In this document: positions 9,012 through 49,224 of the stretch, piece after piece
Position numbering within the stretch: position 1 is the first letter of the stretch
Layout: every line of letters begins with the position of its first letter
Origin: Rhizophagus irregularis
Lineage: Eukaryota
NCBI RefSeq assembly: GCF_026210795.1
Contig: NC_089430.1
Coordinates: forward strand, 5,456,001 to 5,520,000
Direction of reading: 5' to 3'
DNA length: 64,000 nucleotides
Made by a program: the position numbers and the translations under genes
Notes under the pieces: generated by a model
Seen by the model: only the letters and a program-made list of their open reading frames with translations
The model's database searches: none
What the model was told of the DNA's origin: nothing

Positions 9012-12000
9012 TTATTCTATTCCATCTTTTTTTCTTTCACTCTCAGATTCGTTATTTTGACTTAAGAAAAAATTTTTTCCTTTACTCCCCGATTCGCTAT
9101 TTTGACCTAAGAAAAAAAAAGATTATATTAATTACGAATTGAAAAAAACGTGATTATTATGCAGAAAATAATATTTACTATCTTCATTATCATTCAATCG
9201 AGAAATATTGATTTGTGAAGATTCTATTTAATAAATTAAGACTTATTGTTAGTATTTATAAACTAAATATTCTTAAAATTATAAGTGGAATATTACCATT
9301 TTTGTTAATATTCAACTGAGAAATATTGATTTGACAAGATTCTATTTAATAAATTGATACTTTATTATTAGTATTTTATACATTAAATATTTTTAATGTT
9401 GTAAGTAGAATATTTACCATTCTCGTTAATATTCAATTGAGAAATATTGATTTGTAAAGATTCTATTTAATAAATTAAGACTTATCATTAATATTTATAA
9501 ACTGAATATTCTTAAAATTATAAGTGGAATATTTACCATTTTCGTTAATATTCAATTGAGAAATATTGATTTGCAAAGATTCTATTTAATAAATTGATAC
9601 TATTAGTATTTTATAAACTAGGTACTTATAAAGTCATTACATAAGTATGCTATTTACCACTAGTATTAATATTCATTTGAGAAAAGTTAAGTTGTAAAGA
9701 TTCTATTTAATAAATTAAAAGATTGTTATTAGTTGAATATTGACTAATATATTTAAAAAGTAACAATTAACAAAACATTTAATTAATACCTGAATATTCT
9801 TTGCTTATTATATTATCATTTTGTTCATAATAATCATCGGAATTTTTTGGTTCAGGAAGATTACTAAAATCAAGTAATCTACTTGTATAACTAGCTTCTG
9901 AATGTGTGTTATATATCCCTAAATTAGATGTAATGTTATTTAATGAATTGCTGTTTATTTCATCTGCTTCCTTAATTTGTGCTTGTAACTCTTCGTTTGA
10001 TCCATTATGCCATCTTCGTAAAATATTGTTTATTTCTTTTGTTATTGGCCGTTCTGATGGATTGGCATCTAAGCATCTTTTAATTAAATGTACAATTAAT
10101 TGTGGTACTTTAATGTTAAACCTCGGTCTAAATCCTTTACAAATTTTTATTGCTAGATTATTATCATGTTTTAAATCATGATATGGGGATAATCCAGAAA
10201 TTACTTCATACATTATTATACCAAAACTATAAATATCAGTAGCTTTGGTATAATTTTGTCCTCTTAAAATTTCAGGGGCTATATAAGGTAAAACACCATA
10301 TATGTTGTTTTTTGCATTCTCTAATTCATTATAATTTGCAGGTTTACATAATCCCATATCAGTTATAGCAGTTTTATATTTAAACTTTAATATATTCCCA
10401 ATATGCAAATCTCGATGAATTAATTCCTTTTCATGAATACATTCAAGTCCATTTACAATATGTCGTAAATAATCAAACTTTTTATTCCAATTAAGCTTAC
10501 TATATTCTTTATCTAAATAATTTCGTAAACTTCCATCTTCTGCATAATCTAAAATCATTATATAATTTTTCGTTTCTGGATCCTGTGTTATCCCATAAAA
10601 TCCAACAATCACAAAATTATCCATTCCTACTTTATTATGCAATATAAACTATGTGAATGCAATATTACAAAATATTTTAGTAACACTAATAATTTAAATT
10701 TTATTAACATAATAATAAATTAAATTAATCAGATAATACCTCATTAATAAATTCTGGTGTAATATTTTTTGAATTATTCAAACTTTTCAGAGCTACCAAT
10801 ATATCATTGCTATTTCTTTTCCATTTTTGATTTTTACTATCCCAATCAGTTATAAATCCATTAGTTAAATATGCTCTGTATACTTTTCCGAACCCACCTT
10901 TTGCAATATATTTAATATCATAAAATCTATTATAAGGTATCCATTCCAATGCTTCCTTTACATCTTTATGAGCTGATAATTGAGTATCTTGAATAAATTT
11001 ATCAATATCATCATTACCACTAGTCCAATTTTCAAAATTTCGTTGAAAGTATATTGAATTACAGTATATTTTATTACACTCTTTACATTTATTATTCAAA
11101 ACTATCATCATATAATTTTTTGTTTCTGGATCCTGAGTTATTCCATAAAATGTATGTTCAATTTTAATCTACAAATGTAATAATATGTTAGAAAAATAAA
11201 ATTTTAAAATTTTGTTGAGTAATAAGCTTATTAGTATACTACCTTATTTGCAAGTTCAAATGTAAGATCATTGGGAGTATTTAAACTTTTCAAATTCACA
11301 AACATATTAAGATTGTTTCTTCTCCAATTTTGATTTACATTATCCCAACTTTTATCATTTTCATCATAACTTATATATCCATCAATCCAATTTGCTCTAT
11401 ATACTTTACCAAAATCATCTTCTGCAATATATTTAATATCATGAAATCTATCATAAGGTATCCATTCTAATGCTTCTCTTGCAACTTTATGTACTGATAA
11501 CTGAGTATTTTGAATAAATTTATCAATATCATCATTGCCACTAGTCCAATTTTCAAAATTTTGTTGAAAGTAAATTGAATTACATATTTTATTACACTCT
11601 TTACATTTATTATTCAAAACCATCATATAATTTTTTGTTTCTGGATCCCAAGTTATTCCATAAAATTCATGTTCAATTTTAATCTACAAATGTAATAATT
11701 TATTAGAAATAAAGTATTTATAATTTTGTTAATAATTAACTGAAGCTTATACCTCATTTACAAATTCTAATGTAAGAATGTTTGAAGTATTTAAACTCTT
11801 CAAATTAACAAACATATTGCATCCTTCTCTTATCCAATTTTGATTTTCATTATCCCAACTTCCACTATTTTTACAATCACTTATATGTCCATCAATCCAA
11901 TTTGCTCTATATACTTCACAAAACTCATCTTTTGCAATATATTTAATATCATGAAATCTATCATGAGGCATCCATTCTAATGCATGTGATATTTCATTAT

Positions 12001-13709
12001 CATTATGAACTGATAGCTGGCTATCTTGAATAAATTTGTCAATATCATCATTACCACTAGTCCAATCTATGAATTTATATTGAAAGTGTATTGTGTTACA
12101 TATTTTGTTGCACATTTTACATTTATTACTCAAAACCATCATATAATTTTTTGTTTCTGGATCCTGAGTTATTCCATAAAATTCATGTTCAAATTTAATC
12201 TACAAATGTAATAATTTATTAGAAATAAAGTATTTATAATTTTGTTAATAATTAACTGAAGCTTATACCTCATTTACAAATTCTAATGTAAGAATGTTTG
12301 AAGTATTTAAACTCTTCAAATTAACAAACATATTGCATCCTTCTCTTATCCAATTTTGATTTTCATTATCCCAACTTCCACTATTTTTACAATAACTTAT
12401 ATGTCCATCAATCCAATTTGCTCTATATACTTCACAAAACTCATCTTTTGCAATATATTTAATATCATGAAATCTATCATAAGGCATCCATTCTAATGCA
12501 TGTGATATTTCATTATCATTATGAACTGATAGCTGGCTATCTTGAATAAATTTGTCAATGTCATCATTACCACTAGTCCAATCTATGAATTTATATTGAA
12601 AGTGTGTTGTGTTACATATTTTGTTGCACATTTTACATTTATTACTCAAAACCATCATATAATTTTTTGTTTCTGGATCCTGAGTTATTCCATAAAATTC
12701 ATGTTCAAATTTAATCTACAAATGTTATAATATATTAGAAATAAAATATTTATAATTTTGTTAATAATTAACTGAAGCTTATACCTCATTTACAAATTCT
12801 AATGTAAGAATGTTTGAAGTATTTAAACTCTTCAAATTAACAAACATATTGCATCCTTCTCTTATCCAATTTTGATTTTCATTATCCCAACTTCCACTAT
12901 TTTTACAATAACTTATATGTCCATCAATCCAATTTGCTCTATATACTTCACAAAACTCATCTTTTGCAATATGATATTTAATATCATGAAATCTATCATG
13001 AGGTATCCATTCTAATACTTCACTTACATCTTCATGAGCTGATAACTGAGTATTTTTAATAAATTTATCAATATCATTATTGCCACTAGTCCAATCTATG
13101 AATTTCCGTTGAAAGTGAATTGAATTACATATTTTATTGCACCTTTCACATATATTATTCAAAACCATCATATAATTTTTTGTTTCTGGATCCTGAGTTA
13201 TTCCATAAAATATACGTTCAAATTTAATCTACAAATGTAATGATATATTAGAAATAAAATATTTATAATTTTGTTATGTAATTAACTGAAGCTTATACCT
13301 TATTTACAAATTCTAATGTAAAAATGTTTGGAGTATTTAAACTCTTCAAATTCACAAACATATTGTATTCATTTCTTATCCAATTTTGATTTTCATTATC
13401 CCAACTTTTATCATTTTCATCATAACTTATATATTCATCAATCCAATTTGCTCTATATACTTTACCAAACTCATCATCTTTTGTAATATTATACAATTTA
13501 TCATAAGGTATCCATTCTAATACTTCTAATACTTTACTTACATCTTCATGAACTGATAACTGAGTATTTTGAATAATTTTATCAATATTATCATTACCAC
13601 TAGTCCAATTTTTAAAATTATGTTGAAATTGTATTGAATAACAGATGCAATTACATTTTTTACATATCTCGCTAGCATCTGATAGCTTAATTAGCCCAAA
13701 AGAATCCAT
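9012..13709 (-). CDS. Kinase A: tyrosine-kinase-like protein kinase with 6 N-lobe modules (5 degenerate, 1 intact) and a C-terminal micro-exon tail
   Basis: ATG 13709. Modules at ~516-bp period are joined by phase-0 introns. The last module has AKGGFGKVY and VALK; the catalytic exon has HRDLHIGN, TDMGL, YIAPE and DIYSFG. Five 45-nt exons follow, then terminal exon 9106-9012 ending in TAA. Confidence 0.88.
9179..9702 (-). repeat. Tandem array of five 45-nt micro-exons plus introns (~119-bp period)
   Basis: Exons 9702-9658, 9581-9537, 9462-9418, 9341-9297 and 9223-9179, each bounded by ttaaatAG and GTaa, encoding ESLQINISQLNINEN-like 15-mers. Confidence 0.9.
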
Positions 13710-16700
13710 GAGCAGGATTTTCACAATTTATAAACAAATTCAAATTGAGAGGATAAAAAAAAGCTAAAAAATTTGTGCGGGTTGAAAAGTGGAAAAAATA
13801 TTTATTTCGGACCGAGGTCATATAAATAGAAAATATAATCATCACGTGCTATGCATGTCATGTGACTTACATTATTCATTGTGGATTTGTTGAATACGAT
13901 TGAATTATGCATCCGGCGTGAAAATAAGATGTATAGAACTGGTCCTCCACAAATTTTGAGCTCTTCCCATAACAAAAAAAAATCAAAGAAAAAATTTTTA
14001 ATTTAGCATTTCAACGCACCGAGCGCAGTAACAGTAAGTTATATTACACAGGATTCTTGGCAAACGGTGATTTGTTACTTCAATGCATAAATAATTACCA
14101 TTTTTAGAAAGTAACACTGTCATACATTTAAAAACAAATTTCACGTCACAAATCTTCGTCAAAAGACACTAACTAAAAAAATTCCGAAATATTATATGAG
14201 TGGATTATGAGTTATGACACTTTTTTTAAGTGATACATATTGTAAATATTTTAATGCCTAGAACCTCTTTTTCATTATTTGTTTCTAGATAGATAAATAA
14301 ATAATATATTCATTTTTATTAATCCAATATCATTGTTTTATTTGCATGTTTATCATTTTCATTTTTTATTTGAAAAAATTTCTATCATTTTCTTAATAAA
14401 AATTCGAAGAAAAAGCCTGGTTCGTATGGATTGTGTTTATGTTTTCCATTTATGTTTAATCCACTTTTCACAATAATCACTTTTTTTTATTTTTTGTTTA
14501 TTCTTTTATTAACCTCTTAAGCTTGAATTTTTTTTTTATTATCAAATTTCATCGTCGTTATTAAAATAAAACGTGGATTATGTAAAAAAAAAATTTTTCA
14601 AAATATAAAATATTCGCAGTTCCGCACAAGAAATTAAAATGAATCATAATTGCAAAGAAATTTTTAGTCACCCAAAAATGAGAATTACTCACGCAAAAAA
14701 AAAAATAATAGCGTATAACCAAAATTGTCTAATAAAAAAAATAATAATAAATAATAAAAATTTACATTTTTTTTAAAAAAAAAATTCAGATTCAGAGTCA
14801 GCTTGATAATCAAACGGTTAAACTGTTGATCAGAAATAATTTTGTTAAAATTTTTTTTTTAAAAAAAAAATCCGCAGTCAAGCTTTGAAAGAGTTTAAGA
14901 AGATTATAGAAACTTTGAAAAGCGATGATAGTAATAATAATCCACCCGCTAAGAAAGAAAAATAATTTCGTTTGTTGCACAAAGTTACCATAAGTTAATA
15001 GTAAAGGACTCATCAATTGTAAATTGGAAAATAATAAGCATAAAATAGATATTTCATAAAATCTTACTTGTAGTCTTGTACGATACAAATAAAAAACTTG
15101 CGCATGCAAAACTATATATAATAAACAAAGCACAAAGTTACGATCCTAGGCTATTTAGTGCTTTTACAGCTAATTTGTTTAAATTTTCACTAACTAAATA
15201 TAAATTTGATTATATGGGATAAATCATTCATTTTCTTTTAAATCTGCCAATAGTAATTATTCAGAATGTGAAATTACTGGTTGAATCTGTGGAGAAAAGT
15301 AAGTTTATAAGTGCAATTTCGTTAATAATAATATTACTATTAATATTAAACATTCTTTATGGATTTCAATCAAAGATGATTAAAAGTTTGGAGAGTATAC
15401 GTATTTTTGTTTAACACTAATTATAGAATACATAGAATAGAAATGTAAACATAGTCGTTCAAATGTAACTGTCGTTTTTTCAAAATTAGTATTAGTGAAA
15501 TTGATACAATGACGATCATTAAAAATCACATAAAAAAATACGTAGAATTAAAATAAAGCGTCAAAAATATTTATATTGAGTTTCGTTATAATACAAAAAA
15601 AAAACTCATTTTATCCAATTATGGTTTTCCGTAGTAATTAATTATCATTAAAAACTAAAAAAAAAAATAAGAATGAAAAAATAATATTTTAGTTTCATAA
15701 TAAAAGTTTGTGATTTCAAAAATTAAAGAACATATCATACATAGGACTTAATTTAGTACTGTACTTATAAAATATGCTTAATACGTGTGATAAAAAGATT
15801 TCATATCCTTGTTTATAATATATAGTGAAAATATTATTAATAACTAATGGTTTATATCGTAATAATCTACTGATTTCACTCTTTTTTTTTTGTTTAAGAA
15901 TCAGATAAATTATTCAAGGAAATAATGATTGCCAAATTAAAGTTTTTACATTTTTTATAAATTTTTCCGTTAATTGGATTTTCTCGCTTGCAACCAAGGA
16001 CCAGTTTAAAATTCTTTACTTTAATATTCGTTAATGAGCTACTATCTAAATTAATAAAATTATTACTCATAACCCTATTTTACTTTTAATTTCAATAGAT
16101 TAATTTTAAATTTATTGTGATGCTTTTTCTTTTTAAAAAAAAAATGATCACGTGACTGGACATGTCGATCATTACATAATTAATACGAACTCCAAAACGC
16201 CAAATTTTTTTTTTGTTATCCAAATTTAGTTAACATCAGCGTGTTGAGGAAATCATATTATTCAATCGTAAATCTACAATGTGCATAACTAATTTTGATG
16301 ATACCAGTTAGTGATAAATGAGTTGACTAACAATGCAAAAAGTTAGAACTCCTTTCTTGAACGAATTTATACGTCTCTTTAGAATGAGAAGTTATTGATT
16401 TGATAATTTTCCCTGATCAGTTATTCGGTCATCCTGAATTTTTAAGAAATTTTTTTACAAAAAAAAAAATCTTTAGTCAGGAATAACTACTTTATTTTAT
16501 TTACTTTTCTTAACAATTTGCTTATTCTTGTTTTTTTCGGAAACGTTTCTATGATTCTATTTAGATGAAGTAGACTTCCCGCTTTTTTTTAATTTAGCTC
16601 TTTCTTAGCTAATTTGTGAGTTAAAAATTTACCCAATGTTTGTTATTGGCACATTAATATCTTAGTTTCAACTTTAAGTATTATGATGTAATGATTACCA

Positions 16701-16856
16701 AATAAATGATCGACGATTAAACCTTCCCATATATACAATAGCCTCAAGTCAGGCTGAAATTATATATTTTCCCTAAATCAATATAAAATTTTTTATTTAT
16801 TCTTTCTATTTTTTTTAACTTTCTTCAGATTAATTTAAATTTTAATTAAAAACCAA

Positions 16857-19800
16857 ATGTACTGTATAAAGAAATTAATCAAGTCATCAAACACTGACGA
16901 AGAATTGAATGATATATGTGAAAATTGTAAACGTGTATGTTATGGAATAAATTTTCAAAGAAATTTTAAAAATTGGACTAGTGGCAATAATTATATTGAT
17001 ATTTTTATTCAAGTTACTCAATTATCCGTTCATTATCAATGTGAAATATCAAATGCATTAGAATGGATACCTTATGATAAATTTTATAATATTAAATATA
17101 TTTTAGAAGATACTTTTGGTAAAGAATATAAAGCAAATTGGATTGATGGATATATTTATAAATGGAATAATTATTTTAAAAATTGGAAAAGACGTAATAA
17201 AAATATGTTTGTAATTTTAAAAAGTTTAAATGATCCAAAATATATTACATTAAATTTTATGAATGAGGTATAATTTTATATGAAAAATAATTTTTTTTTT
17301 TTTTACAAAATTTTAATCTTTACAATACTTTTAGATTGAAAAGAAACATGAAACTTATGGAATAACTCAAAATCCGAAAACGAAAAATTATATGATTGTA
17401 TTAGATGATAAATGCAAGTGTAATATCATATGTAATGCGAAAATTTTTCAACAAAACTTCAAAAATTGGACTAGTGGTAACAAAGATATCGACAAATTCA
17501 TTCAAGGTACACAATTATTGGCTCATAATAATGTAGAAAACACATTAGAATGGATACCATATGATAGATTCTATGATATCAATTATATTGCAGAAGATAA
17601 TATCTACAAAGCAAATTGGATTGATGGATGTATAGATGAATGGGATATTGAAAATCATAATTGGAAAAGATATAATCAAAATATGTTTGTAAATTTAAAA
17701 AGTTTAGATAATTCTAAAAATATTACATCAGAATTAATAAATAAGGTATAGTTCATTTTTGAATGAAAGTTTAAATATTTTTGTAAATTCACTATAATTT
17801 TAAAAAGCATTATTTAAATATTTTTACTAATATATTATATTTATAGGCCAATCAGACCAATCATAGGCTTTATGGAATAACTCAGGATCCAGAATCAAAA
17901 AATTATATGATGGTCTTAAATGATGAATGTAAAAAATGTTATCATGCATGTAATGCAACTATTTTTCAAAATAATTTTAAAAATTGGACCAGTGGTAATA
18001 ATGATATTGATAAACTTATTCAAGATACTCAGCTATCAGCTCATAAAAATGCAGGAAATGCATTAGAATGGATACCTTATGATAAATTTCACAATATCAA
18101 ACATATTGCAAAAGATGAATTTGGCGAAATATATGAGGCAAATTGGATTGATGGACTTATAGATAAATGGGATGATGAAAATCAAAATTGGAAAAGATAT
18201 AATCAAAATATGTTTGTAAATTTGAAGGGTTTAAATACCCCAGAAAATCTTACATTAGAATTTATAAATAAGGTATGATAAGCTTATTAACAAGATTATA
18301 AGTATTTTTTTTTTCTAACATATTATTATTACATTTGTAGATTAAAAGAGACCATGAATTGTATGGAATGACTCAGGATCCCAAAAAAAATTATATGATC
18401 GTTTTAAATAATAAATGTGCGAAATGTAATTATATATGTAATTCAATATATTTTCAAAGAAATTTTAAAAGTTGGACTAGTGGTAATAATGATATTGATA
18501 AGCTTATTCAAGATGCACAACTATCAACTCATGAAAATGCAGGAAATGCACTAGAATGGATACCTTATGATAGATTTTATAATATAAAATATATTTTAGA
18601 AGATAGTTTTGGTAAAGAATATAAAGCAAATTGGATTGATGGATATGTTTATAAATGGAATAATAATTTTAGAAATTGGAGAAGACGTAATAAAAATATG
18701 TTTGTAACTTTAAAAAGTTTAAATAATCCAAAAAATGTTAAATCAGTAATTATGAACGAGGTATTGTTTTAACGAAATTTTAAATTTTGATTCTTCCTAT
18801 TTTTACTATACTAATATATTATATTTATATTTAATAGATTCATAGTAGTTATGGAATAACTCAAGATCCACAGACAAAAAATTATATGATGGTTTTGAGT
18901 GATAAATGTAAAAAATGTAATAAAATATGTAATACAATATACTTTCAACGAAATTTTAAAAGTTGGACTAGTGGTAATAATGATATTGATAAGATTATTC
19001 AAGATGCACAATTATCAGCTCATAAAAATGCAAGAAATGTATTAGAATGGATACCTTATGATAAATTCTATAATATTAAATATATTGCAAAAGGTGGATT
19101 TGGCAAAGTATATAAAGCGAATTGGATTGATGGACGTATATGGGATTGGAATGATAAAAATCAAAATTGGGAAAGATATGGTAAAAATATGGTTGTGGCG
19201 TTGAAAAGTTTAAATAATTCGAAAAATGTTACATTTGAATTCATGAATGAGGTATAATTTATTTTTATTTGATCAATTATTAATGAAAATTCTAAAATTT
19301 TAATCGTATTAATTTTTATATTTAGATAACATCTCATCATAAAGTAAGTAATGATATTATTATTGGATTTTATGGAATAACTCAAGATCCGGAAACAAAA
19401 GATTATATGATGGTTTTAGAATATGCAATAAATGGAAGTTTACGAAATTATTTAGACACAAATTATAATAAATTAAGTTGGGAAAGAAAAATTAGAGATT
19501 TATGTGATGTTGCAAAGGGACTTGAATCCATCCATAATAATAACTTAATTCATCGAGATTTACATATTGGTAATATACTAATGGGTAATGATACAGTTTA
19601 TATAACTGATATGGGATTATGTAAACCTGCGGATTATAATGAATCAGAAAATGCAAAAAACAACACGTATGGTGTATTACCATATATAGCTCCTGAAATT
19701 TTAAGAGGAGAAAATTATACCGAAGCTTCAGATATTTATAGTTTTGGTATAATTATGTATGAAGTGATTTCTGGATTACCTCCATATCATGATCTCAACC

Positions 19801-20291
19801 ATGATCAATATTTAGCAATAAAAATTTGTCAAGGACTTAGACCAAGATTTAATATTAAAGTACCACAATTTATCGTTGATCTAGTTAAAAGTTGTTTAGA
19901 TGCAAACCCATTAAATCGACCAACAGCAAAAGAAATTTATGAAATTTTTAACCCATGGAGTTTATCAACAGAATTACGAAAACAAATTAGTAAAACGGTC
20001 GAAATAAACAACAATTCATCAAATAATAAAATACCTTCAACTAATTTAGGATTATCATATAAAACACATTCGGAAACTTTTTATGCAAGTAGATTGCTTA
20101 ATTTTGATAATCTACCTGAACCGAAAAATTCTGATGATTATTATGAACGAAATGATAATATAATTGGCATGGAAATTTCAGGTATTAATTAATTAATAAT
20201 AATTCAAATCACTTTTTAATATTATAATAATAATACTAATAATTGATTTTTAATTTATTAAATAGAATCTTTACAAATTGATATTTCTTAA
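16857..20291 (+). CDS. Kinase B: TKL-type kinase with 5 N-lobe modules
   Basis: ORF modules at 16857, 17392, 17907, 18359 and 18886 splice in frame; only the last has GGFGKVY/VALK. Catalytic exon ~19326-20181 (HRDLHIGN, TDMGL, APE). A single tail exon from 20266 (ESLQIDIS) ends at TAA 20289-20291. Confidence 0.87.
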
Positions 20292-21526
20292 TCGAATGAA
20301 AATGGTTATATACAGTTAATGTCTTTGAATAATTTTTTTTGATTCGTACTTAATATATTCTATAGTTTTTCCATGTTAAATAACAAACATAGGCAAAGAA
20401 AAATTTAGAATAAATTTAGGACCTTTTGTTCTATTCCTAAAAATCTTCTTATCAAAAATTTATGTTATGGTGTTTGAAATAGACAGTAGGATCTGCAGAA
20501 AAGGTCATAGGGAAAGGAAAAATTATCATTATATTTTATTGTAATATTTCTAAACATTTGCACAATAAAATAGTAATTTAAGTTAATAAATACTAATATC
20601 ATATGTAAAATGTGTCGAGATAATTTGTTATCTTTTCACGAATAAGCATTTCTTTTATTATTAATCTTACCATCAGACGTCAGTATATTGTCGAGTTACC
20701 AAGGCTGATAAATTCTTTTTTAAAGTAAAAAATCTGAAACTGAAAGTAATGATGTTTGTTTTATCTTATTTTATTTATTTTATTACTATTATTATTTTTT
20801 TCCTTTTTTTTATGAAGTGTATATCATGCGTTCTGTTTTTTTTATTAATCTAGTTTTTTTTTTGGTCAGCTTGTGAGTCATGTTATGCACACGACTCAAT
20901 CGACTCCTGATTTAAATTATTATGTCAGCATTTTTTATTGTATATTAATTCGTGATCCGTGAGTAGGGATGGAAAAAGTTCCAAATGGAGTGACTCAAAT
21001 TGGTTTTAAAACTGAACGTTGGAGCCATTTTTGAGCTGACCGAGCAGCTCAGTGAAACGAACGGTTTGACTCTGAAAATCAACTCTGGAAGCTAAACTGG
21101 TCACGTGGCATTACACAAATTCCAAAAAGAAAATTTGTGCTGATCATATAATTCCGGCCGGAATTATGAATATCAGAAGTGATTCAGGACCCAGAAATAT
21201 ATATCATATGGGCGAGTTTAGTTCATTTAAATTTAATTGATATAATTGCCTTATCTGTCCCATTACATAATACCAATGTGTTCGATATTCATGTGATATT
21301 ATGTCATGTGAATATACAGATTTTATTAAATAAAATTTTCCATCTAACTAATCGTTAAACAAAAATAACTTAACGAAAAAAATGCGTTCAACCCATCCGA
21401 CTAACCTTGGTATATATTTCAGGCTAAACCTGCTGATTTTTCTTTAAATTTATGAATTTGTTTTATTAGTTTTCTCTATTTTTTTTTTTTAGCTATTGTT
21501 TACTTACAGATTTCTCTTTTTTAGTC

Positions 21527-22141
21527 ATGTCTACTCAAGATTCAACTAAGTTATATTGCTCTATTTGCAAAAGGCGTGCAAAAGGGTTTAAAAATCGCTC
21601 AGGACTTCAACGACATGAAACACTAAAACATGTGTCCTACAATACACTTCCGTCACACGTTCGGTCAGTTCCAAACTCCGAACTTTCACATTTAAAAAAA
21701 GCTATAATCAAAGAGTTGCAAAAACGTCTTAAAAATCATCACACTGCTGTTGGGAAACAAGTATTTTCAATACATTGCAGTGAAGATGCTTTTGTTAGTA
21801 TTTTTAAAAATCATATAACTCGTTATTCTCCATGTGGGTCTTCTTATTTTTGTAGTTTTAAGGGGGAAAAAGCCTTTGAAGAAGTTGGAAAAATCTTGGA
21901 TGATGAAAATTGGGGAGAACGTAATTATGGAGGAGGGCAATTAAGCTTTGTCCGTTTGCATATGCCTGAGGTTGAAAATAGTAATTATGAACAAAGTGCA
22001 AAAAAATCTAAAACAAAATCATTAGTTAATGGAGAAATGACTGTTCAATGGAAGGTGACAGGGGGTAAAGATAAAGAGAACCATAAATTTGAAGCAGGTT
22101 CAGCTCAATTTCGTTTTTTTTTAGATCAATGTCAAATTTAA
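21527..22141 (+). CDS. 204-aa transposon-borne protein with an N-terminal C2H2 zinc finger
   Basis: Uninterrupted ORF with YCSICKRRAKGFKNRSGLQRHETLKH (C-x2-C...H-x4-H). A likely 5'UTR intron lies at ~21410-21492; the remainder of the protein is unrecognised. Confidence 0.75.
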   Translation: MSTQDSTKLYCSICKRRAKGFKNRSGLQRHETLKHVSYNTLPSHVRSVPNSELSHLKKAIIKELQKRLKNHHTAVGKQVFSIHCSEDAFVSIFKNHITRYSPCGSSYFCSFKGEKAFEEVGKILDDENWGERNYGGGQLSFVRLHMPEVENSNYEQSAKKSKTKSLVNGEMTVQWKVTGGKDKENHKFEAGSAQFRFFLDQCQI

Positions 22142-22251
22142 AGAAAATCTTATAATGTAAATAGCAAATAATAAAAAAAATTATATAGATAAATTAGTTC
22201 AATTGAATACGTTTTTTCATTTTTTTTTATTTGATAACAAATAAAATCCTG

Positions 22252-24523
22252 TTATTCGAGTCTGTATTTTTTGGATTTTTTAAAAAAATTAGGAACTCTA
22301 TTTGATGCAAAGTACAATTGCCGATTTTCATGCTCTAACATTTCCAAAATTGCTGATTTTCGCGAATTTCTATTCCCTCCATCTTTCAATGTGTTTTGAA
22401 AATAAAGGCATATCTGCATATGATTTTTTTTTTCAACTGGAGAACATGAAAATGCTGCCAATCCAAACTTATGATGAATTTCAAGAAACTCCGCAACATG
22501 ATTGCATAACACATGAATATATGGTGTTATATCCTGAATACGATACATGCCTCTAACAAAATTACCTCTATTTGGATGTCCTGTAGAAGGAGCTGTAAAT
22601 TCATCTAACCAAGATTTGGCCTTATAACGAAAAAATTCACCAGTTGTTTTTTTATCTTGTATTAGATGATATAGTTCATTAAATTGATCCCATAAGGCAC
22701 GGATTTGTATGGCTTGTGTTATTGATTGAAATACAGCAAAAAGGTCAAATTCTTTTAGAACTTTTAATTTGTCTGGACCCATTAATGAAGTATAAGACAG
22801 ATTATTTGTATTTTTTTCATGCCAAAATTGAAACGAAATATTAAGTCTTTGCATTTCTGATAAAATTTTTCCTTTCCAAATTTCTTCATTTGCAGTCTCA
22901 CGGCGGAGATCAGAAATCATTAGTTCCCACAGTCTATCTGTTAATCGCAAAAAAATATGCAACTCGTCAACCACCCAATTTTGTAATGGTATCATATGAA
23001 ATAAAGGTTCTTTGATATGGCCATTTATTTGTTTATAATTGACTTTAATATTATCCATTGATTTGTTGATTTTTTTTGAAGTAGTATTAATGCTATTTTT
23101 ATTACAATCACACCATGGACAGAAATACTGTGCATTAGCAGCATTCATTCCTAAACAAATTGCTAAAAATTTCCAATCGGAACTGAAATATAGTTCTACG
23201 GGCCATTGGTTGCCACCTATTTGATTAAAACCTTTCTCTTTTAATATACATAAATCAGAAATTAAAGGAGTTAATACATTCTTAAGAGACTCATATGTTT
23301 CAGCTCCTGGATATAAAACCAAAGTATAGTGGTTATCTGGTTTTTGTAATCCATTTAAATCATTCAATAATGTCATTGTGACCATTACATGTTTCACTTT
23401 GCGTCCAACATTACGCCCATCTCCTGAAATTCGAATATGTAATGTTGATTGTCTAGGAATTAAAATTCCTTTTTCAATATATAATGGTATTATATAGTTT
23501 AAAATATCTGTTATACGACGTTGACCTCCTTTTCCAATTGATTCTAACATATTTGTAATAATTTCACTATCAGTAATATTTGGTTCTTCTCTAATTGGTT
23601 CAAATTTAGTCAGTTGCAATAAATCAACAAGAGTTAGTGGGACCTGTTTCTTCATTTCTGCATTAATTTTTTGCCATATATCACATACTGCCTTTTCACA
23701 TGGAAGATCTTCAATTCGTGCTAGAGATCGATAAGCTTCTCTTGATATATGACCTTTATCCAAAGATTTAACTACTGCTTCAATTTTTTTTATTTCCTCT
23801 ATTTTATTCACCTTTCCAAAATTAATATCATATACATCATCATCTATCTCAAATTTTATTTGTTTAAGTTTTATTTGATCATCTGGATGAAATGTATTGT
23901 CTCTTTCTCTTTCAACAATATCTAAAATACTCTGTGATAATCCAAGTATTCTGCGACGTTTTTGAGAATTACCAAGATCAATAAATGGCCGAATTTTAAG
24001 ATCTAGAGACATTGTTCTACGCACTCGTTCAACACTAAGTAACTTGAGACCAAAAAGTAAAGGACCAGATATTTTTCCTTTATTTTCTTTGTTTGACTGG
24101 TCCCTATTTCGATTTTTCTCCATTTCTTTCATTCCATTAAACTCCTAATAGAATAATTAGTTAATATTTATTTCAACAATAAAAAATATTTTTAAAAAAT
24201 AAATGTACCTGATAATACTTGCAGGCAGCATCTGTAGATGTCTCCCAGGAATGTACTTCTCTTGAAAAATTAACTCCAAAGCAAATTTTGTATAAAGGTT
24301 TTTTTTCCACATATTCAATTGAACATTCAACTGTATAAATTGCTTTTCCATATTGGGTCTTGACAACATAATTATGAGGAATTGGATGTTTCGGATTCCT
24401 GGTATAATGAAGTTGTTCTGTAAGAGGATATGTTCCCTCTTTTATTATCTCGTAAAAATAGGTTCTTTTATTATCAAAAAGTTTTATAAATGAACTTTTA
24501 GGATAAGTGCCTTCTTCTTTCAT
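22252..24523 (-). CDS. About 735-aa DDE transposase with a RAG1/Transib-like core and an FYR-like N-terminus (2 exons)
   Basis: Exons 24523-24209 and 24144-22252 join in frame (YYQ|EFNGMKE). Motifs ISGDG, SSDWKFL, FCPWCD, DELH, TPYIHVLCNHV and AFSCSPVEKKN are collinear with RAG1 catalytic and Zn-binding motifs. Confidence 0.82.
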
Positions 24524-24999
24524 AATTTATGTTTTACGTAATTATACTAGATTTATAAAAATAAAAAATGAATATATTAAAAATGTGATAAGTAATAAAA
24601 AAAATTATTTGAAAAAATTTAATAAAAAAAAAAAAATATTTAAAAAAAAAGATGCGTCGAAAAATGACTATCAGATCAAAATTTGTTATGCTTTTAAATC
24701 AAGATTAAAACCTGTATTCAATCCAAATTTAGTTATAAGCCTGATGATCATTTCCCAAATTGAAAACTTAACCTTACTTATTTAATCTATTTATATACCT
24801 GACAATTGTAATCTGACAGACAAGAATCGATCTGAGGCACAACATGTACTGTACATGAATTTTTTTTGCGGGATTTTTTTTAAAACTATTTTTTTAGAAC
24901 AGATAACCTGAAAAGTGTATATTATATATATGCCTCAGTAAGTTTTTAGGGAAAGGTTTAATATTAATGTATTTTTATTAATAGTATTTCTTTTTCTTT

Positions 25000-26820
25000 A
25001 TAGGAAATAAACTTGGAGACCTTGTATTTGGCATCTCTTTAATAAATTACACGTCAGAGTTTGCCGAAGCAGTTCAAGAAAAGTTTAGCAAATTTAAAAA
25101 TATTGAAATTCCAAAAGCTATTAATTATGAGCTCCCAGTGTATTATTTATACGGTGATGTGCTCACCATATTGGGTTAGTTAGACAAGAGGGTTTTCTAG
25201 CATTTCGATTGTATATTTTTTTAGGTGGTTCTTCCAGTTTCCTTAGACGCAAAATTTTGGTAAGTTTTTTTTATTTTTATTTTTTTCTTAATTGTTTTTA
25301 TTTTAACAAACAATTTCTAACAGTTTGTTCTTTCCTTTATCTAGGCAGTTCTCTTTGGATATTGGATTCTAGTAAGGTTAATTTCTATTTTTTTTGTATT
25401 TTATTTTAGTGAACTTTACTAACAGTTCATTTTTTCCAATTTTTTCATTTCTTTTAGATTTTGCCAATTCTCTCTGAAAATAGAGGTGGTGTCCTTCTTT
25501 TTTGTTTTCTTCTGTCTTGTTTTCTTTTGCCTTTTTATTAACTTTTATTTTTCTTTTTTGTAGATTTTGTCTTTTTTTTTTCTTTTAGATTTTGGCGGCT
25601 TCTTTTTTTCAGATTTCTCTAGGTTTGCTTATTCTCTTCAGGTTATTTTTTTTCTTTTCATTTCATTACTAATTTTCACCTTGCTTTTTCATTTTATTAG
25701 GTTTTAATACTTTTTCTTAGGTTTCTGCAGCTTTCTTTACGGAATAGAGATTGGTATTCTTTTACTTTAATTTTATTTTTCCGTCATTTTCTTTACTAAT
25801 TTATCCTTTCTTTGGCTGGCTCTTCTTTTTTTTAGGTGCCAGCGATTTTTCTTTTTTAGGCTTGACAGTTCTCTTTGGAAATAAAGGTTAATGCCCAATT
25901 TTTTTCATTATTTTTTTTTGTTTCGTTTTCTTTTACTAATGTTCATTTTGTTCATTTATTTCTTTTCTTTAGGTTTCAGACAGCTTGTTCTTAGAATCTG
26001 TAAGTTCCAGTACTTTTTTCTTTATAATTTAACAAAACTTTAACTAACGATTTCTTTTTTTTTCCTTTTTTAGGCGGATTTCTTAGACGTGCGTAATGGT
26101 GTGTGGTATTTTTCTTTAACTTGTTTATTTATGAACTATTAACTAGCAGTTTTTTCCTTTTTTAGGTAATTTTTCAGGCTCTTGGACACACGGAAATTTG
26201 GTGAGAGGAACAAATGATTACTACATTTCGCTTTTTTGGACTATTTAAAAATGATTTTTTTAACTTTTTTTATATTTGTAGGAATGGTATCACATCGGAA
26301 CCCTAGGTAAGTTTTTCGAGAAGCTTTTGAAAGCATCATCAAAGAAAATAATATATTAAAGTATTTTTTTATTTGTAGGCTCCGCACTTCTTTTCTTTGA
26401 ATGACTTTTTTTTAATGAAACTCTCACTAACGTTTCATTCATTCTTTTTTTTTAGATGGTTCTGAAGTGTGGAATTTCAGTTGAAATTTGTCAATGACGA
26501 ATTTAGAGATCTTGGGATGTTATAATGGGTCATCATAAAGATGTGATCCAAATCATCAAGATTAACTGGATTATCTGTCAGAACCTCCCTTGAAAGGTAT
26601 TTTAAAGATAAAGATGGCAGATTTTTTTTTTAATTAGGGATGTTAGTAAAGTTACTAACACCTCTTTATTTATTTATTTTTTATAGAAAGGAACCACTTC
26701 AGTATTAATGGAACAGCTTTTGAAGGCATTTAAAGGAGAAGGGAATTTTTTAGTCTGGGATTATCTAGCTAATGGATTGATCAGATTCATCCAGATCGTA
26801 CCTCAGGGTGAAGGATATAT
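25000..26820 (+). other. Chain of tiny exon-like segments with splice signals inside the transposon (putative spliced non-coding or degenerate transcript)
   Basis: About a dozen repeated GT(aag)...CTAAC/CTAAT...polyT-AG units separated by ~25-40 nt segments; no convincing ORF. Confidence 0.45.
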
Positions 26821-27544
26821 TTCACTGCTTTCTTATTGTAGCAAGTTTACTATTAGCGTGAAAACATTTTGAGTAAAAAAATTTAGTTTAACAAAGTACC
26901 TCATAATTAGCCACATGTTAACACTTTTAATTATTATCTTTTATCTAATAATAATTTACGTCATGAATGCATTATTTATTAAAAGCGTATGTAAAGTTAA
27001 ACTAGTCATATATATGGTTAAAGTAGCTATTACATTTCAACGATTCTAGTAAAGTAGCTGCTAGAAATTTGTTTTTTATTTAGAATCTTCGTATTTTAAT
27101 ATAATGTTAATTTTAGCCAAAATTACGCTAATTCTGGCCAAATTTTAAATCGCACTAAACTGTATTTTTTAAAAGTCGAATATACTTATCGGATTATTGT
27201 ATTACATATTCTATTTTTGCTGCATCTTTGTTGCTATAAAATTCAACGTATTTGGATGATGAATCAAATTCGCCGATATGTATAAGGGTCAGGTTTGAGT
27301 TTGCGTATTTTAAACTAAAAAAATCATGAAAATCTTTCCTTTTTTAGATAATTTTTGATAATGCCGGTCATAATATTATTTCCTATTATAGTAACGGGCT
27401 AACATTATCATAATTCCGGCCCTGAAAAAATGCGTACAGCTTATAGTAAAAAAATTTTTTCATCACCTGACCCCTATATATATATTTCTGGGTCCTAGTG
27501 ATTCGGTTCTAAACTCTGCTCTGATGGAGTCAGTTCCACAAATG

Positions 27545-28400
27545 TAATAGGCGAAAAATAGATAGTGAATTTTATATAGAGTTTATTATATATAGAAAAG
27601 TTCCTAGAAAATAATGAAATAGATATAATAGACTGCTGCAACGAAAAAGAATACAAAAACATAAAAGAGATGAAGAAAAAAGCGAGAGAGATATTAAATG
27701 GAAAGGAGTTACGTGGACGATAAATCATCAAATTGAGATAATAGATGAAGCGCTATTAGTTAATGAATATAATTTAATTTGGAAGAAAAAAATTATAACT
27801 GGAGGATTTCGAAAATGAAGAAAGAAAGTTACTGACGTGATATGGAAAAACAAAATTCTCAATAGCGAAAAATTAGATGATTTATTTATGTATAATTTTA
27901 GAAAAGAATTCGACTGGCAATCGACTTTTGAATTTGTCAGTAACCGCATAAATTTTACTCAAAGACAATGCAATCAAAAAGATACGAAGGATAGATCTTA
28001 TTGAATAAAAAATCTATTAAAAGAATTACCAACTTAGGATACTCTTTTTAAAAGAAACACTGACAAAATAGAAAATGATATATGTAAAAGATGTGGGAAA
28101 AATGAGAAAGAAACTTGGGAACATATTTGGCTATGTGAAGATAATGTGTTCACAATAGATGAAATTGTACAAGAATCAATATATAGGTTTGAAAAACGGT
28201 TAGAAGACGATAACAAAAATGATGAAATTAAAATTTTAAGGAATTATAATTTTAATCTTAGAACACCCTTCGATAATATTGAGAGGAAAAAGTCGAATAT
28301 GGGAGATACTTAGAGAAGTGTACAATGAAAATTTCAACAAATTGACGAATAAAAAAGAAGAAAAAGCAGTAATTAAATTATGGAATTGGCTCTTTTACGA
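27545..28400 (+). pseudogene. Non-LTR retrotransposon (LINE) ORF2 C-terminal remnant
   Basis: Frame with stops containing KELPT*DTLFKR...CKRCGKNEKETWEHIWLC, the CCHC zinc knuckle found downstream of LINE reverse transcriptases. Confidence 0.7.
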
Positions 28401-28643
28401 AATGATCGCCAAAAGTGACACTATTACACTGCATTTCTTTTGTTATCCGGATTTAGTCTTGTTTTACACAACACAAATCACCTGATTATTGCATTATATA
28501 TAATTCGCTCTATGCAGAGATAAAATTTTTCTTTCTGTTTTTCCTGCAAAATATATTTCCCACAATCCTTACTCCACCTTTTTTTATTAGTATTTATTAT
28601 TAATTACTTATTTTACTTTTAATCAATTCTTATTGAATTGCAA

Positions 28644-31600
28644 ATGAGTCAAATTATAAGGAAATTATTATTGTCATTTCGTAATGATAAGTGTGAAAGT
28701 TGCGGAAATGATCATTGTTATGTAAAACATTTTCAGAAAAATTTTAAAAATTGGACCAGTGGCAATGATAATATTGATAAATCTATTCAAGATACTCAGC
28801 TATCAGCTCATAATGATGTGAAGAAAGCATTAGAATGGATACCTTATGATAAATTTCACAATATTAAATATATTGCAAAAGATGAATTTGGCGAAATATA
28901 TATAGCAAATTGGATTGATGGAAAAATACGTTATTGGGATGTTGCAAATCAAAATTGGAGAAGAAATAATCATAATATGTTTGTAAATTTGAAGAGTTTA
29001 AATATACCAAACATTCTTATATTATTAGAATCTGTAAGTGAGGTATTATAAGCTTGTTAACAAGATTATAATTAATTTTTTTCTAACATATTATTATTAT
29101 ATTTGTAGATTAAAAGAGATGAATTTTATGGAATAACTCAGAATCCAGAAACAAAAAATTACATGATAGTTTTTAATAATATATGTAAAAAATGCCATGA
29201 AAATTGTTATTCAATATATTTTCAACAAAATTTCAATTATTGGACTAGTGATAATAATGATATTGATAAATTTATTCAAGATACTCAGCTATCAGCTCAT
29301 AATGATGTGAAGAAAGCATTAGAATGGATACCTTATGATAAATTTCACAATATTAAACATATTGCAAAAGATGAATTTGGCGAAATATATATAGCAAATT
29401 GTATTGATGGAAATATACGTTATTGGGATGTTGCAAATAAAAATTTGAGAAGAAATAATCATAATATGTTTGTAAATTTGAAGAGTTTAAATATTCCAAA
29501 CATTCTTATATTATTAGAATCTGTAAGTGAGGTATGATAAGCTTGTTAACAAGATTATAATTAATTTTTTTCTAACATATTATTATTATATTTGTAGATT
29601 AAAAGAGATGAATTTTATGGAATAACTCAGAATCCAGAAACAAAAAATTACATGATAGTTTTTAATAATATATGTAAAAAATGCCATGAAAATTGTTATT
29701 CAATATATTTTCTACAAAATTTCAATTATTGGACTAGTGATAATAATGATATTGATAAATTTATTCAAGATACTCAGTTATCAACTCATTATAATGTGAA
29801 GAAAGCATTAGAATGGATACCTTATGATAAATTTCATAATATTAAATATATTGCAAAAGATGAATTTGGCGAAATATATATAGCAAATTGGATTGATGGA
29901 AATATACGTTATTGGGATGTTGCAAATCAAAATTGGATAAGAAATAATCATATGTTTGTAAATTTGAAAAGTTTAAATACTCCAAACATTCCTATATTAG
30001 AATCTGTAAATGAGGTATGATAAGCTTGTTGACAAGATTATAATTATTTTTTTTTTAACATATTATTATTATATTTGTAGATTAAAAGAGATGAATTTTA
30101 TGGAATAACTCAGAATCCAGAAACAAAAAATTACATGATGGTTTTGATTAATATATGTGAAGAGTGTGATAAAATATGTAATTCAATACATTTTCAACGA
30201 AATTTTAAAAGTTGGACTAGTGACAATGATGATATTGATAAATTTATTCAGGATACTCAGCTATCAGCTCATAATGATGTGAAGAAAGCATTAGAATGGA
30301 TACCTTATGATAAATTTCACAATATCAAATATATTGCAAAAGATGAATTTGGAGAAATATATAAGGCAAATTGGATTGATGGAAATATAAGTTATTGGAA
30401 TAATAAAAATGAAAATTGGATAAGAAGTCATCATGATATGTTTGTAAATTTGAAAAGTTTAAATATTCCAGAAAATTTTACATCAGAATTTATAAATAAG
30501 GTATGACAAGCTTATTAACAAGATTATAAGTATTTTTTTTCTAACATATTATTACATTTGTAGATTAAAGGATATGAAATTTATGGAATAACTCAGGATC
30601 CAAAAAAACAAAATTATGTGATGGTTTTGGGTGATATATGTAAAAAATGTAATGAAAAATGTAATTCAATATATTTTCAACGAAATTTCAATTATTGGAC
30701 TAGTGATAATGATGATATTGATAAATTTATTCAAGACACTCAGCTATCAGCTCATAATAATGTGAATAAAGCATTAGAATGGATACCTTATGATAAATTT
30801 TGCAATATCAAACATATTGCAAAAGGTGAATTTAACAAAATATACATAGCAAATTGGATTGATGGAAATATAAGTTATTGGAGTTATTGGGATGATGCAA
30901 ATCAAAATTTGGAAAGAACTAATCATAATATGTTTGTAAATTTGAAGAGTTTAAATACTCCAGAAAATCTTACATTAGAATTTATAAATAAGGTATGACA
31001 AGCTTATTAACAAGATTATAAGTATTTTTTATTCTAACATATTATTACATTGGTAGATTAAAAGAGAGCGTGAATTTTATGGAATAACTCAGAATCCAGA
31101 AACAAAAAATTACATGATGGTTTTAAATAATATATGTGAAAAGTGTAATTCAATATGCAATACAATATACTTTCAACGAAATTTTAAAAGTTGGACTAGT
31201 GGTAATAATGATATTGATAAGATTATTCAAGATGCACAACTATCAGCTCATGAAAATGCAGGAAATGTATTAGAATGGATACCTTATGATAAATTTTATA
31301 ATATTAAATATATTGCAAAAGGTGGATTTGGCAAAGTGTATAAAGCGAATTGGATTGATGGACGTATATGGGATTGGAATGATAAAAATCAAAATTGGGA
31401 AAGATATGGTAAAAATATGGTTGTGGCGTTGAAAAGTTTAAATAATTCGAAAAATGTTACATTTGAATTCATGAATGAGGTATAATTTATTTTTATTTGA
31501 TCGTTTAATGAAATTCTAAAATTTTAATCGTATTAATAGTTATTTCTGTATTTAGATAACATCTCATCACAAAGTAAGTAATGATATTATCATTGGATTT

Positions 31601-32525
31601 TATGGAATAACTCAAGATCCGGAAACAAAAAATTATATGATGGTTTTGGAATATGCAACAAATGGAAATTTACGAAATTATTTAGACACAAATTATAATA
31701 AATTAAGTTGGGAAAGAAAAATTAGAGATTTATGTGATGTTGCAAAGGGACTTGAATCCATTCATAATAATAATCTAATTCATCGAGATTTACATATTGG
31801 TAATATACTAATGGGTAATGATACAGTTTATATAACTGATATGGGATTATGTAAACCTGCGGATTATAATGCATCAGTAAATGCAAAAAACAACGCGTAT
31901 GGTGTATTACCATATATAGCTCCTGAAATTTTAAGAGGAGAAAATTATACCGAAGCTTCAGATATTTATAGTTCTGGAATAATTATGTATGAAGTAATTT
32001 CTGGGTTACCTCCATATCACGATATCAGCCATGATCAATATTTAGCAATAAAAATTTGTCAAGGACTTAGACCAAGATTTAATATTAAAGTACCCCAATT
32101 TATTATTGATTTAGTTAAAAATTGCTTAGATGCAAACCCATTAAATCGACCAACAGCAAAAGAAATTTATGAAATTTTTAACCCATGGAGTTTAACAGCA
32201 GAATTACGAGAACAAATTAGTAAAGCGGACGAAATAAACAACAATTCATCAAATAATAAAATACTTTCAACTAATTTAGGATTATCATATAAAACACATT
32301 CGGAAGCTTTTTATGCGAGTAGATTGCTTAATTTTGATAATCTTCCTGAACCAAAAAATTCCGACGATTATTATGAACATAATGATAATATAATAAGCAA
32401 GGAATTTTCAGGTATTATTTAATAATTTTGTTAATTAAAATGCAAGTTTTAAAGATACTACTAATAAACTTTTCATTTATTAAATAGAATCTTTACAAAT
32501 TGATATTGCTCAATTGAATATTTAG
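28644..32525 (+). CDS. Kinase C: TKL-type kinase with 6 N-lobe modules
   Basis: ATG 28644; modules at ~490-bp period. The last module and catalytic exon (~31556-32411) are nearly identical to kinase B, with DIYSSG instead of DIYSFG. Tail exon from 32488 (ESLQIDIAQLNI) ends at TAG 32523-32525. Confidence 0.87.
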
Positions 32526-37290: not shown

Positions 37291-37440
37291 AGGACCCGAA
37301 ACATTTACTACTGTATTAACTGTACGTATTTTTTAAGGGCCGGAATTATGATAATTTCGGGCAGTATTCAAAAAAGGTAATGGATTTGCACAAGGCATTA
37401 TCTATAAAAGGAAAGATTTTTATGATTTTTTTTTTTTGGC
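37291..37440. mobile_element. Solo end fragment of the AGGACCC transposon family
   Basis: Starts AGGACCCGAAA and matches the reverse complement of ~27320-27450 (GGGCCGGAATTATGATAAT, AAAAGGAAAGATTTT). Confidence 0.7.
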
Positions 37441-38793: not shown

Positions 38794-40112
38794 CACATGC
38801 CGATCAAAAATATCCGGCCACTTTTCAAAATGAAATAAATTTATAAATTTAATATGACAAAAATAAAAATTTAAATAAAATATATTTATTTATGACTCAA
38901 TTTATTAAATTATAAAAAAAATTAATAATATTTAATAATTAATTCTATTGCCATTTGCGGCAATAACTGCTTCAATTCTTTGGGGCATACTATCGATTAA
39001 TTTCTTATAATATTCCGGCGGAATATCCTCCCATGCATCCTTAACATATTTTTCAAGGACTTTAATACTAGATGGTGGTGGAGTACGACGACGTACCATT
39101 ACTTTCATCTCCGACCAAAGATTCTCAATCGGATTTAGGTCAGGGCTTTGTGACGGCCAATTGAGAACCACAATTCCAGCATTTTCACGGGCGGTCATTG
39201 CAATTTTTGAACGGTGTGGTGGGGCATTATCCTCTTGGAAAATTCCGTTACCTTGTGGGAAAAAGTCATGCAAAGTAGGTATGACATAATCATTAATAAT
39301 TTTGGCATGGGTTTGTCCAGTAACTGAACCATTTATCGGAACAATTGGTCCAAGCCCATTCCAGGAAAAACACCCCCAAAACATTTTATTGGGACTATGT
39401 TTTACAGTAACTGCAACACAGTCAGGGTTTAATTCTTCCCCAGGTTCACGCCATACCCTTCCCTGACGGCCTTGTTGAAATTGTGTAAAAGTACTTTCGT
39501 CTGAAAAAAGTACTCTCCTCCACCGTCTTGTTCCCCAGTTTTCATGTGCATGGGCCCATTCGAGGCGAGCTTGACAGTGTGCCTCTGTCATTGCAGGTGT
39601 TTTACGTGGCATACAAGCAGTAAGCCCAACTTTCTTTAGGTTACGACGTATGGTAACAGCAGAAATAGGCTGTTTTGTATGAGCTGTCCAAACTGTTGCA
39701 AGCTTTTTTGTACAAAGCCGACGGTTTTCACCATTTTCTTGAACAAAACTCTTAAGTTCCTGCTGAGCTGTTGAATTTAAAAGTGGAGGACGGCCTGGTT
39801 GTTTTTTTGGTGTTAAGGAATGAGTTTCACGAAGGCGCTTAAGTATATCGTTAACAGTTGTTTTCCCACATCCCAACTGCTTAGCAATTGTGCGACTTGA
39901 TTGTCCACAATTATGACCATAAACAATAGCACCACGTGTTTTTGGGGTAAGTGGCTTCATATTTTTAGAAAGTTCTAGAAAACATAAGGTTTGGGGATAT
40001 GTTTATTATGATTATAAATACAAAATAACGTGTTGATTACGTCATATTAATATGTCATGATCTACATAATTTTGCCAAATCAAAGTGGCCGGATATTTTT
40101 GATCGGCATGTG
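38794..40112 (-). mobile_element. Full-length Tc1-family transposon (1.3 kb)
   Basis: Perfect ~31-bp TIRs CACATGCCGATCAAAAATATCCGGCCACTTT; TA on both flanks. Confidence 0.95.
38932..39960 (-). CDS. Tc1 transposase, DD34E, intact 342 aa
   Basis: N-terminal HTH, GRPP linker, LFSDES, FQEDNAPPH and SPDLNPIENLW; 34 residues between the second D and the E. Confidence 0.95.
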   Translation of the reverse strand: MKPLTPKTRGAIVYGHNCGQSSRTIAKQLGCGKTTVNDILKRLRETHSLTPKKQPGRPPLLNSTAQQELKSFVQENGENRRLCTKKLATVWTAHTKQPISAVTIRRNLKKVGLTACMPRKTPAMTEAHCQARLEWAHAHENWGTRRWRRVLFSDESTFTQFQQGRQGRVWREPGEELNPDCVAVTVKHSPNKMFWGCFSWNGLGPIVPINGSVTGQTHAKIINDYVIPTLHDFFPQGNGIFQEDNAPPHRSKIAMTARENAGIVVLNWPSQSPDLNPIENLWSEMKVMVRRRTPPPSSIKVLEKYVKDAWEDIPPEYYKKLIDSMPQRIEAVIAANGNRINY

Positions 40113-49044: not shown

Positions 49045-49224
49045 AGGACCCGAAATATATATAAAGAGGTAAGGTGACTTTCAAATTTTTTATTAATAGG
49101 TTTAGTACATAAAATTTTCTAATCAGAAAAAATACTTTAACCTCTGATCATCATGTGATTTGCCATTGATGTAAAATTTTATGCAATAATGCACCTTACC
49201 CCTACATATATATTTCGGGGTCCT
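49045..49224. mobile_element. 180-bp MITE of the AGGACCC transposon family
   Basis: Both ends read AGGACCC(C)GAAATATATAT..GGTAAGGTG; flanks ATAATACA/ATATTACA (7 of 8 match); the paralogous empty site near 59833 has one copy (CTATTACA). Confidence 0.88.

Follow-up and report, generated by a model that had tools for sequence, protein, structure and literature searches.

A RAG1/Transib-like transposon of Rhizophagus irregularis with a convergent, conserved zinc-finger partner gene

Transposases of the RAG1 type have been described as working either alone, as in Transib, or together with RAG2L. Other superfamilies of DNA transposons commonly have a second or helper gene; MuDR and EnSpm both carry one, that of MuDR being convergent, and a convergent layout alone is not specific to RAG. 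Transib, the RAG1-type transposase without a partner, is described as a single-gene element in the accessible text of PMC7204232, and its TIR heptamer with an invariant CAC, its CACAATG termini and its target site duplications (TSDs) of 5 bp are reported in the available part of PMC1131882, while a 2026 preprint, as far as its available text goes, states that neither TIR nor TSD is constant across Transib (bioRxiv 10.64898/2026.08.26.747230). Transib belongs to the CMCT clade, together with EnSpm, Chapaev, Plavaka, ESTA and Lanisha, and the accessible portion of the work on this clade includes no Glomeromycota (PMC12730594). For fungi, the available text of a Pfam-based survey reports that no Transib was found (PMC5751038), 20 Transib-like proteins have been listed in a study one supplement of which is without Rhizophagus, Glomus, Gigaspora and Diversispora (PMC9435367), and Transib is named, without structure, as newly detected in R. 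irregularis in the accessible part of PMC11075540, whose repeat library may include the transposon family described here. The available text of a further paper mentions Transib in its references only (PMC13465315). In Harbinger elements, a Myb-like protein binds the transposon ends and imports the transposase, according to the accessible part of PMC9392472.

Here, we analysed a window of 64,000 nucleotides of R. irregularis (NC_089430.1, positions 5,456,001 to 5,520,000), to which all coordinates below refer. An earlier note on this DNA, made from the sequence alone, had described a ProtoRAG-like transposon in which a zinc-finger gene, instead of RAG2, lies convergently with the transposase. 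The RAG1/Transib-like transposon occupies positions 21205–27280 (6076 bp), as delimited by a TIR pair, an empty-site joint and contig ends. Its left TIR (21205–21227, forward strand), recognised by end comparison, starts with CATAT and is shared with metagenomic loci; the right TIR (27258–27280, reverse strand) is identical to it at 18 of 23 positions and is the only other sequence in the window to score above 16/23 in a TIR scan. The termini are CA at 21205 and TG at 27280. Three of four public DNA runs contain the empty-site joint 21204->27284, and contigs start exactly at 21205 in two runs (X9, X10) and end at 27280 in one (X9). End comparison points to TAT as the probable TSD (3 bp, forward strand, 27281–27283 and also 21202–21204): the perfect repeat is 3 bp long and a 5-bp reading contains one mismatch, the length being uncertain because the single insertion site lies in an AT microsatellite.

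The transposon itself is nested. It sits in a non-autonomous host element with AGGACCC termini (21186–27496, about 232 bp without the insertion), which has a perfect 19-bp inverted repeat (21186–21204 and 27478–27496) and an 8-bp TSD (21178–21185, identical to 27497–27504). The match of its left arm ends after 19 bp and picks up again at 27281, and the summed contig depth in the public DNA runs is 4,600–28,000 at 27336–27572 versus 4–420 within the transposon. The second, CATAT pair of TIRs, the empty-site joints and the jump in depth past the right end therefore show that the transposon, 6076 bp long, has inserted into a high-copy element of about 232 bp. As an alternative, the perfect AGGACCC repeats of 19 bp were considered as the transposon's own TIRs, and they were ruled out by the 8-bp TSD, the very high copy number and the empty-site joints. 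A related short copy of the AGGACCC element lies at 49045–49224, with a TSD matching at seven of eight positions (perfect at the first site), and a lone end was seen near 37291; the family is very high-copy. Partner and transposase genes lie inside both nested TIR pairs, so that the earlier statement that the two genes share the same TIRs is correct for either pair, although it left unsaid which was meant. A third layer of nesting is suggested by raised left-side contig depth outside the host element (20824–21184, 27504–27800) and a palindrome at 21147–21168.

The transposase is encoded on the reverse strand by two exons and comprises 735 aa in total. Exon 1 (24209–24523) encodes a 105-aa N-terminal domain and is separated by a GT..AG intron (24145–24208) from exon 2 (22252–24144, 630 aa), and a 735-aa database protein (P0087) begins with exon 1. 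In exon-2 numbering, the residues D242, D323, E571, C342/C345, H396 and H544/H549 are intact, and the family conserves D242, D323, E571, the CxxC, H396 and the H-x4-H. The C(2)C and H(3-4)H motifs, here C342-x2-C345 and H544-x4-H549, are located after the second D and before the E. Foldseek places RAG1 first for the structural model (pLDDT 85; E 1.3e-13, TM 0.55–0.63), followed by amphioxus RAG1L (1.3e-10) and HzTransib (1.9e-7), the predicted fold being that of RAG1. By sequence alone the likeness to RAG1/Transib is marginal: in profile comparison the region of the second Asp and the CxxC aligns weakly to RAG1 (E 0.05–0.5), and this marginal likeness may explain why Transib was missed in fungi by the Pfam-based survey, as given in its accessible text (PMC5751038). 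A helix after the CxxC (H363-372) falls within the region that aligns to RAG1L. The N-terminal domain is conserved and has no match in Pfam or PDB; a possible likeness of this exon to the FYR domain found no support in Pfam and profile searches. The N-terminal domain is a candidate for the surface that the partner would contact. RNA contigs give substantial coverage of the transposase in only one of four runs, an observation given no weight because expression cannot be ranked from contigs.

The partner gene (21527–22141, forward strand) is an intact ORF for a protein of 204 aa with an N-terminal C2H2-type finger, an alpha/beta domain, a disordered Lys-rich linker at residues 149–166 and a pI of 9.5. 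Its stop lies 110 bp from that of transposase exon 2, tail-to-tail, and both the open frame and this gap agree with the earlier note. The finger, C11-x2-C14-x15-H30-x4-H35, has the classical pattern CxxC..F..L..H-x3-5-H with a longer loop. It is weak in the window copy (14 bits for Pfam zf-C2H2 versus a cut-off of 25.2) and supported at the level of the family, since 21 of 30 aligned relatives match zf-C2H2_4 at E<=0.1 and the family profile matches solved C2H2 proteins via its first 40 positions; the fourth zinc ligand is a His in only 22 of 45 relatives. The AlphaFold model (pLDDT 79) consists of the finger, a long helix and a mixed alpha/beta domain and is not a propeller, and neither kelch nor PHD is among the families listed in Pfam scans of the partner and 30 aligned relatives, in line with the earlier observation that the protein lacks both patterns. 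No Myb family is listed in the Pfam scans of partner and relatives, the predicted model not being a three-helix bundle, and no chromatin-reader or enzyme domain was found by Pfam scans and structure search. Foldseek returned no match at E<=0.001 in PDB and viral structures, ESM Atlas gave sub-0.9 leads only, and the best match in a VIA structure search had a Z of 4.2, not a clear match and one that says nothing on whether the fold is new or different. No homology to the transposase was detected in any part of the protein (hhalign probability 0.3%).

Homologues of the partner number 85 close ones and 190 profile matches. All named matches are from Glomeromycota (Rhizophagus, Glomus, Diversispora, Acaulospora, Gigaspora, Scutellospora, Racocetra, Dentiscutata, Cetraspora), and no relatives were found in IMG/VR or GTDB genomes. 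The family is basic (median pI 9.4 in 45 non-redundant relatives), and conservation is highest in columns of zinc ligands, aromatic residues and glycines; no column of acidic residues exceeds 80% in these 45 relatives. Among the window copy and six metagenomic loci (L001-L006), pS is far greater than pN in all 21 pairs (p<=2.2e-8), and the 18 finite dN/dS ratios range from 0.09 to 0.26, with three pairs saturated and with dN lowered by the restriction to well-aligned codons. Judged by this comparison, which the earlier note had proposed, the gene is under purifying selection. Three of the six metagenomic loci have a frameshift or stop, as in decaying copies, and L001, L003 and L005 are intact. 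Two variant forms were also seen: a 257/258-aa form that has an additional finger at its N-terminus (P0212/P0344), common to two Gigaspora species in one 90% cluster and a possible domestication, and a predicted protein (P0226) in which a C-terminal piece of the transposase is fused to a partner-family body, which may reflect a same-strand layout in some lineage or an artefact of the gene model.

The partner is transcribed. RNA contigs cover its ORF in four of four runs from two studies, answering the expression check that had been suggested, and a 5'UTR intron (21410–21524, forward strand, GT..AG, donor read from the sequence) is spliced in two runs of one study; contigs of these runs (X17, X18) join 21401->21524 with 27 exon-like letters between. 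DNA contigs contain a joint 21397->21517 with unknown letters between, which is read as a diverged copy and not a deletion, though it makes the case for splicing slightly weaker. Close to the transcript's 5' end lies a conserved subterminal motif, AACC(C/G)ATC (21390–21397, forward strand), a candidate binding site. It is kept upstream of the partner in all seven sequences (the window and 6/6 loci; in tandem in four), 140–206 bp inside the left end, despite near-saturated synonymous sites in the partner comparisons; over the whole window it is not enriched (4 found, 1.8 expected).

We tentatively favour the reading that the partner binds DNA and assists the transposition of its own element, with a role like that of the Myb-like protein in Harbinger. 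The basic, non-catalytic protein would bind subterminal DNA of the element, with AACC(C/G)ATC as candidate site, through its finger together with the alpha/beta domain; a single finger usually binds DNA weakly. It would help the transposase to enter the nucleus or to reach the ends, a task that falls to the Myb-like protein in Harbinger. The likeness to Harbinger is functional only, the partner being without a Myb domain.

The same motif, located where the transcript of the partner itself has its 5' end, also speaks for a somewhat unlikely alternative: that the protein is a transcriptional or anti-silencing regulator that binds the DNA of its own element and keeps it expressed or unmethylated, leaving the transposase untouched. 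Such a role would resemble that of VANC, a protein that acts against silencing. Intact partner genes that persist with the left end and without an adjacent transposase (see below) are in keeping with such a function, as is the report, in the accessible part of PMC12730594, of fungal CMCT elements with likely anti-methylation genes and TET/JBP carriage. The lack of any chromatin-reader or enzyme domain in the searches above speaks against it, however, and the partner follows the tree of the transposase, in contrast to TET/JBP genes, which move from element to element according to the same available text (PMC12730594).

Linkage of the two genes across Glomeromycota was judged by adjacent locus tags or accession numbers in the listed records. 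In the OCT59 series, 6 of 11 zinc-finger tags adjoin the tag of a transposase among those listed, against a chance expectation of about 0.0013 for each; a transposase record whose contig equals in size that of the window's own protein was left out, since its partner is shown without a name. Over all listed zinc-finger records, 20 of 54 are adjacent to a transposase, including records from R. diaphanus, Diversispora epigaea and Gigaspora margarita and a subfamily whose identity is as low as 31% in the partner and 44% in the transposase, a count that is approximate owing to redundancy across assemblies, RhiirA1 tags that are not always positional and one PKK accession under PKC; the other 34, in lists of up to 15 members per cluster, are without an adjacent transposase. 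Near-clade transposases of R. clarus have a partner gene on an equal-sized contig in six of six cases, which is co-location and not adjacency, and a diverged 1481-nt DNA contig contains both genes in the same layout. Partner and transposase distances are correlated (Mantel rho 0.88 for 21 pairs, 0.94 for 13 adjacent-tag pairs including the window and 0.51 for 16 near-clade pairs; 2,000 permutations, p<=0.003), with most of the value coming from deep splits and 8 of the 21 pairs matched solely by equal-sized contig. The two trees largely agree, the subfamilies of a single species are grouped in the same way in each, and the pairing persists down to about 30% identity of the partner and 44% of the transposase.

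The pairing has exceptions. No transposase lies beside the zinc-finger gene at any of the six metagenomic loci, among the matches listed (592 stretches); in the window as control, 200 bp of downstream sequence are needed to show the transposase, and five of the six loci have that much. The left terminus CATAT is present upstream of the gene at five of these loci, and the sixth shows none within its 280 bp of upstream sequence. In G. rosea, comparison by eye placed none of 11 listed zinc-finger genes on a contig equal in size to those of three listed transposases (best 120 of 229 matches). For four of five distant transposase clusters no partner was seen, though their partner subfamilies lay outside the enumeration, and the fifth has one candidate, matched by equal-sized contig only. 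The earlier note had proposed co-occurrence as a check and named a gene found mainly outside elements as the contrary outcome. Adjacency and co-divergence agree with the former, the unaccompanied zinc-finger genes and the six loci without a transposase go partly the other way, yet five of those six loci retain the left end. Loci with the partner alone border on fragments of host genes that by eye look endonuclease-like (L001:1-440, L003:1100-1377) and DEAD-box-like (L005:1750-1900), which is consistent with truncated elements. The absence of a neighbouring transposase at all six metagenomic loci argues against strictly obligate pairing. On balance, the partner is an old, integral gene of the element, and truncated or non-autonomous copies can retain it as well.

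The partner-only loci and the unpaired Gigaspora copies, as well as the one 257/258-aa form common to two Gigaspora species at >=90%, would also be expected of a captured cargo or host-beneficial gene, partly domesticated and without a role in transposition. We consider this very improbable, as no host family outside the element lineage appeared beyond finger-only matches (190 profile matches, some of them looked up), the pairing is kept to the low identities given above and the distance between partner and left end is fixed. Selection, adjacency elsewhere, co-divergence and a spliced transcript support the conclusion that the partner is not random cargo. The earlier proposal of a recruited cofactor is partly upheld, in that the evidence supports a gene that is not random cargo and is unrelated to RAG2, while the cofactor role itself is one that we infer.

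Tight co-divergence would also suit a partner that takes the place of RAG2 without being related to it in structure, built into the transpososome as a stoichiometric subunit where it would brace the ZnB region and activate cleavage. In structure, the transposase comes nearer to RAG1/RAG1L than to HzTransib, and its helix H363-372 may correspond to the alpha11-alpha12 RAG2-binding region (PMC9435367). Subgroup I Transibs, however, retain the RAG2-binding region without any partner (PMC9435367), the partner looks like a basic DNA binder, and partner-only loci exist, all of which make such a subunit improbable. Under the favoured reading of a DNA-binding transposition helper, the partner would have been recruited likely once, early in the Glomeromycota lineage and independently of RAG2, and would have been inherited with the transposase since. 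An unlikely stronger form holds that the RAG1/Transib lineage gained a partner subunit twice, RAG2 in the V(D)J branch and the zinc-finger protein in Glomeromycota, the latter being obligate in the transpososome; if true, it would provide a natural second experiment in the control of a RAG1-type enzyme by a partner.

The transposon contains a third transcription unit, spliced and with a micro-exon (24900–26955, start approximate, forward strand), which was recognised from RNA contigs and lies head-to-head with the transposase. It is touched by RNA contigs in all four runs, with exon-skipping joints in three, and no long ORF was found within 24900–26955; several indels distinguish the RNA contigs that stem from related copies, and the unit may be non-coding. 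The insertion is flanked by tandem-repeat tyrosine-kinase-like genes (10000–20200 and 28600–32420; exon repeats of about 490–520 bp), and an intact-looking frame for a 356-aa Tc1/mariner-like transposase was recognised by eye at 38932–40002 on the reverse strand.

A multi-copy family of arbuscular mycorrhizal fungi, so far unannotated and labelled 'C2H2-type domain-containing protein', is now defined as transposon-borne, and the element ends are corrected for repeat libraries. In a widespread lineage of fungi the conserved partner is a different one, and this makes the question of how and why RAG1 became dependent on RAG2 accessible to a tractable comparison. The finding is less surprising in that other superfamilies of DNA transposons often have helper genes and that Transib is already listed for R. 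irregularis. No published description of a zinc-finger partner of a RAG1/Transib-like transposase was found, Repbase and subscription journals lying outside the search.

With PIF/Harbinger, the element shares a small second gene of DNA-binding type that is less conserved than the transposase, a functional analogy as far as the available text of PMC9392472 describes it; the transposase there belongs to another superfamily, and the Myb/trihelix domain of the Harbinger protein is absent from the partner. With the CMCT clade, it shares the C(2)C and H(3-4)H motifs, CA..TG termini and a TSD, here provisional, within 2–5 bp, whereas the accessible part of PMC12730594 describes no zinc-finger partner of such kind. 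The DDE triad, CxxC, H-x4-H and fold match are common to Transib (HzTransib, Subgroup I/II), which is single-gene, in contrast to the conserved second gene, third transcript and CATAT ends found here. With ProtoRAG/RAGL, the likeness consists of a RAG1-fold DDE transposase, the fold being predicted, and a second gene convergent within the TIRs; to this extent the ProtoRAG-like description stands, but it is a likeness of layout only. The second gene of ProtoRAG/RAGL encodes a kelch propeller and PHD and not a 204-aa C2H2 and alpha/beta protein, its termini, like those of classical Transib, are CAC while both ends here are CATAT, and the TSD of both is 5 bp compared with a perfect 3-bp repeat, or 5 bp with one mismatch, at one AT-repeat site. 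The transposase here also has its 105-aa N-terminal domain without a Pfam match. The element is not a member of RAGL/ProtoRAG, since it has neither a kelch-PHD partner nor CAC ends; it is a new, real and well-supported two-gene variant of the RAG1/Transib-like (CMCT) transposons.
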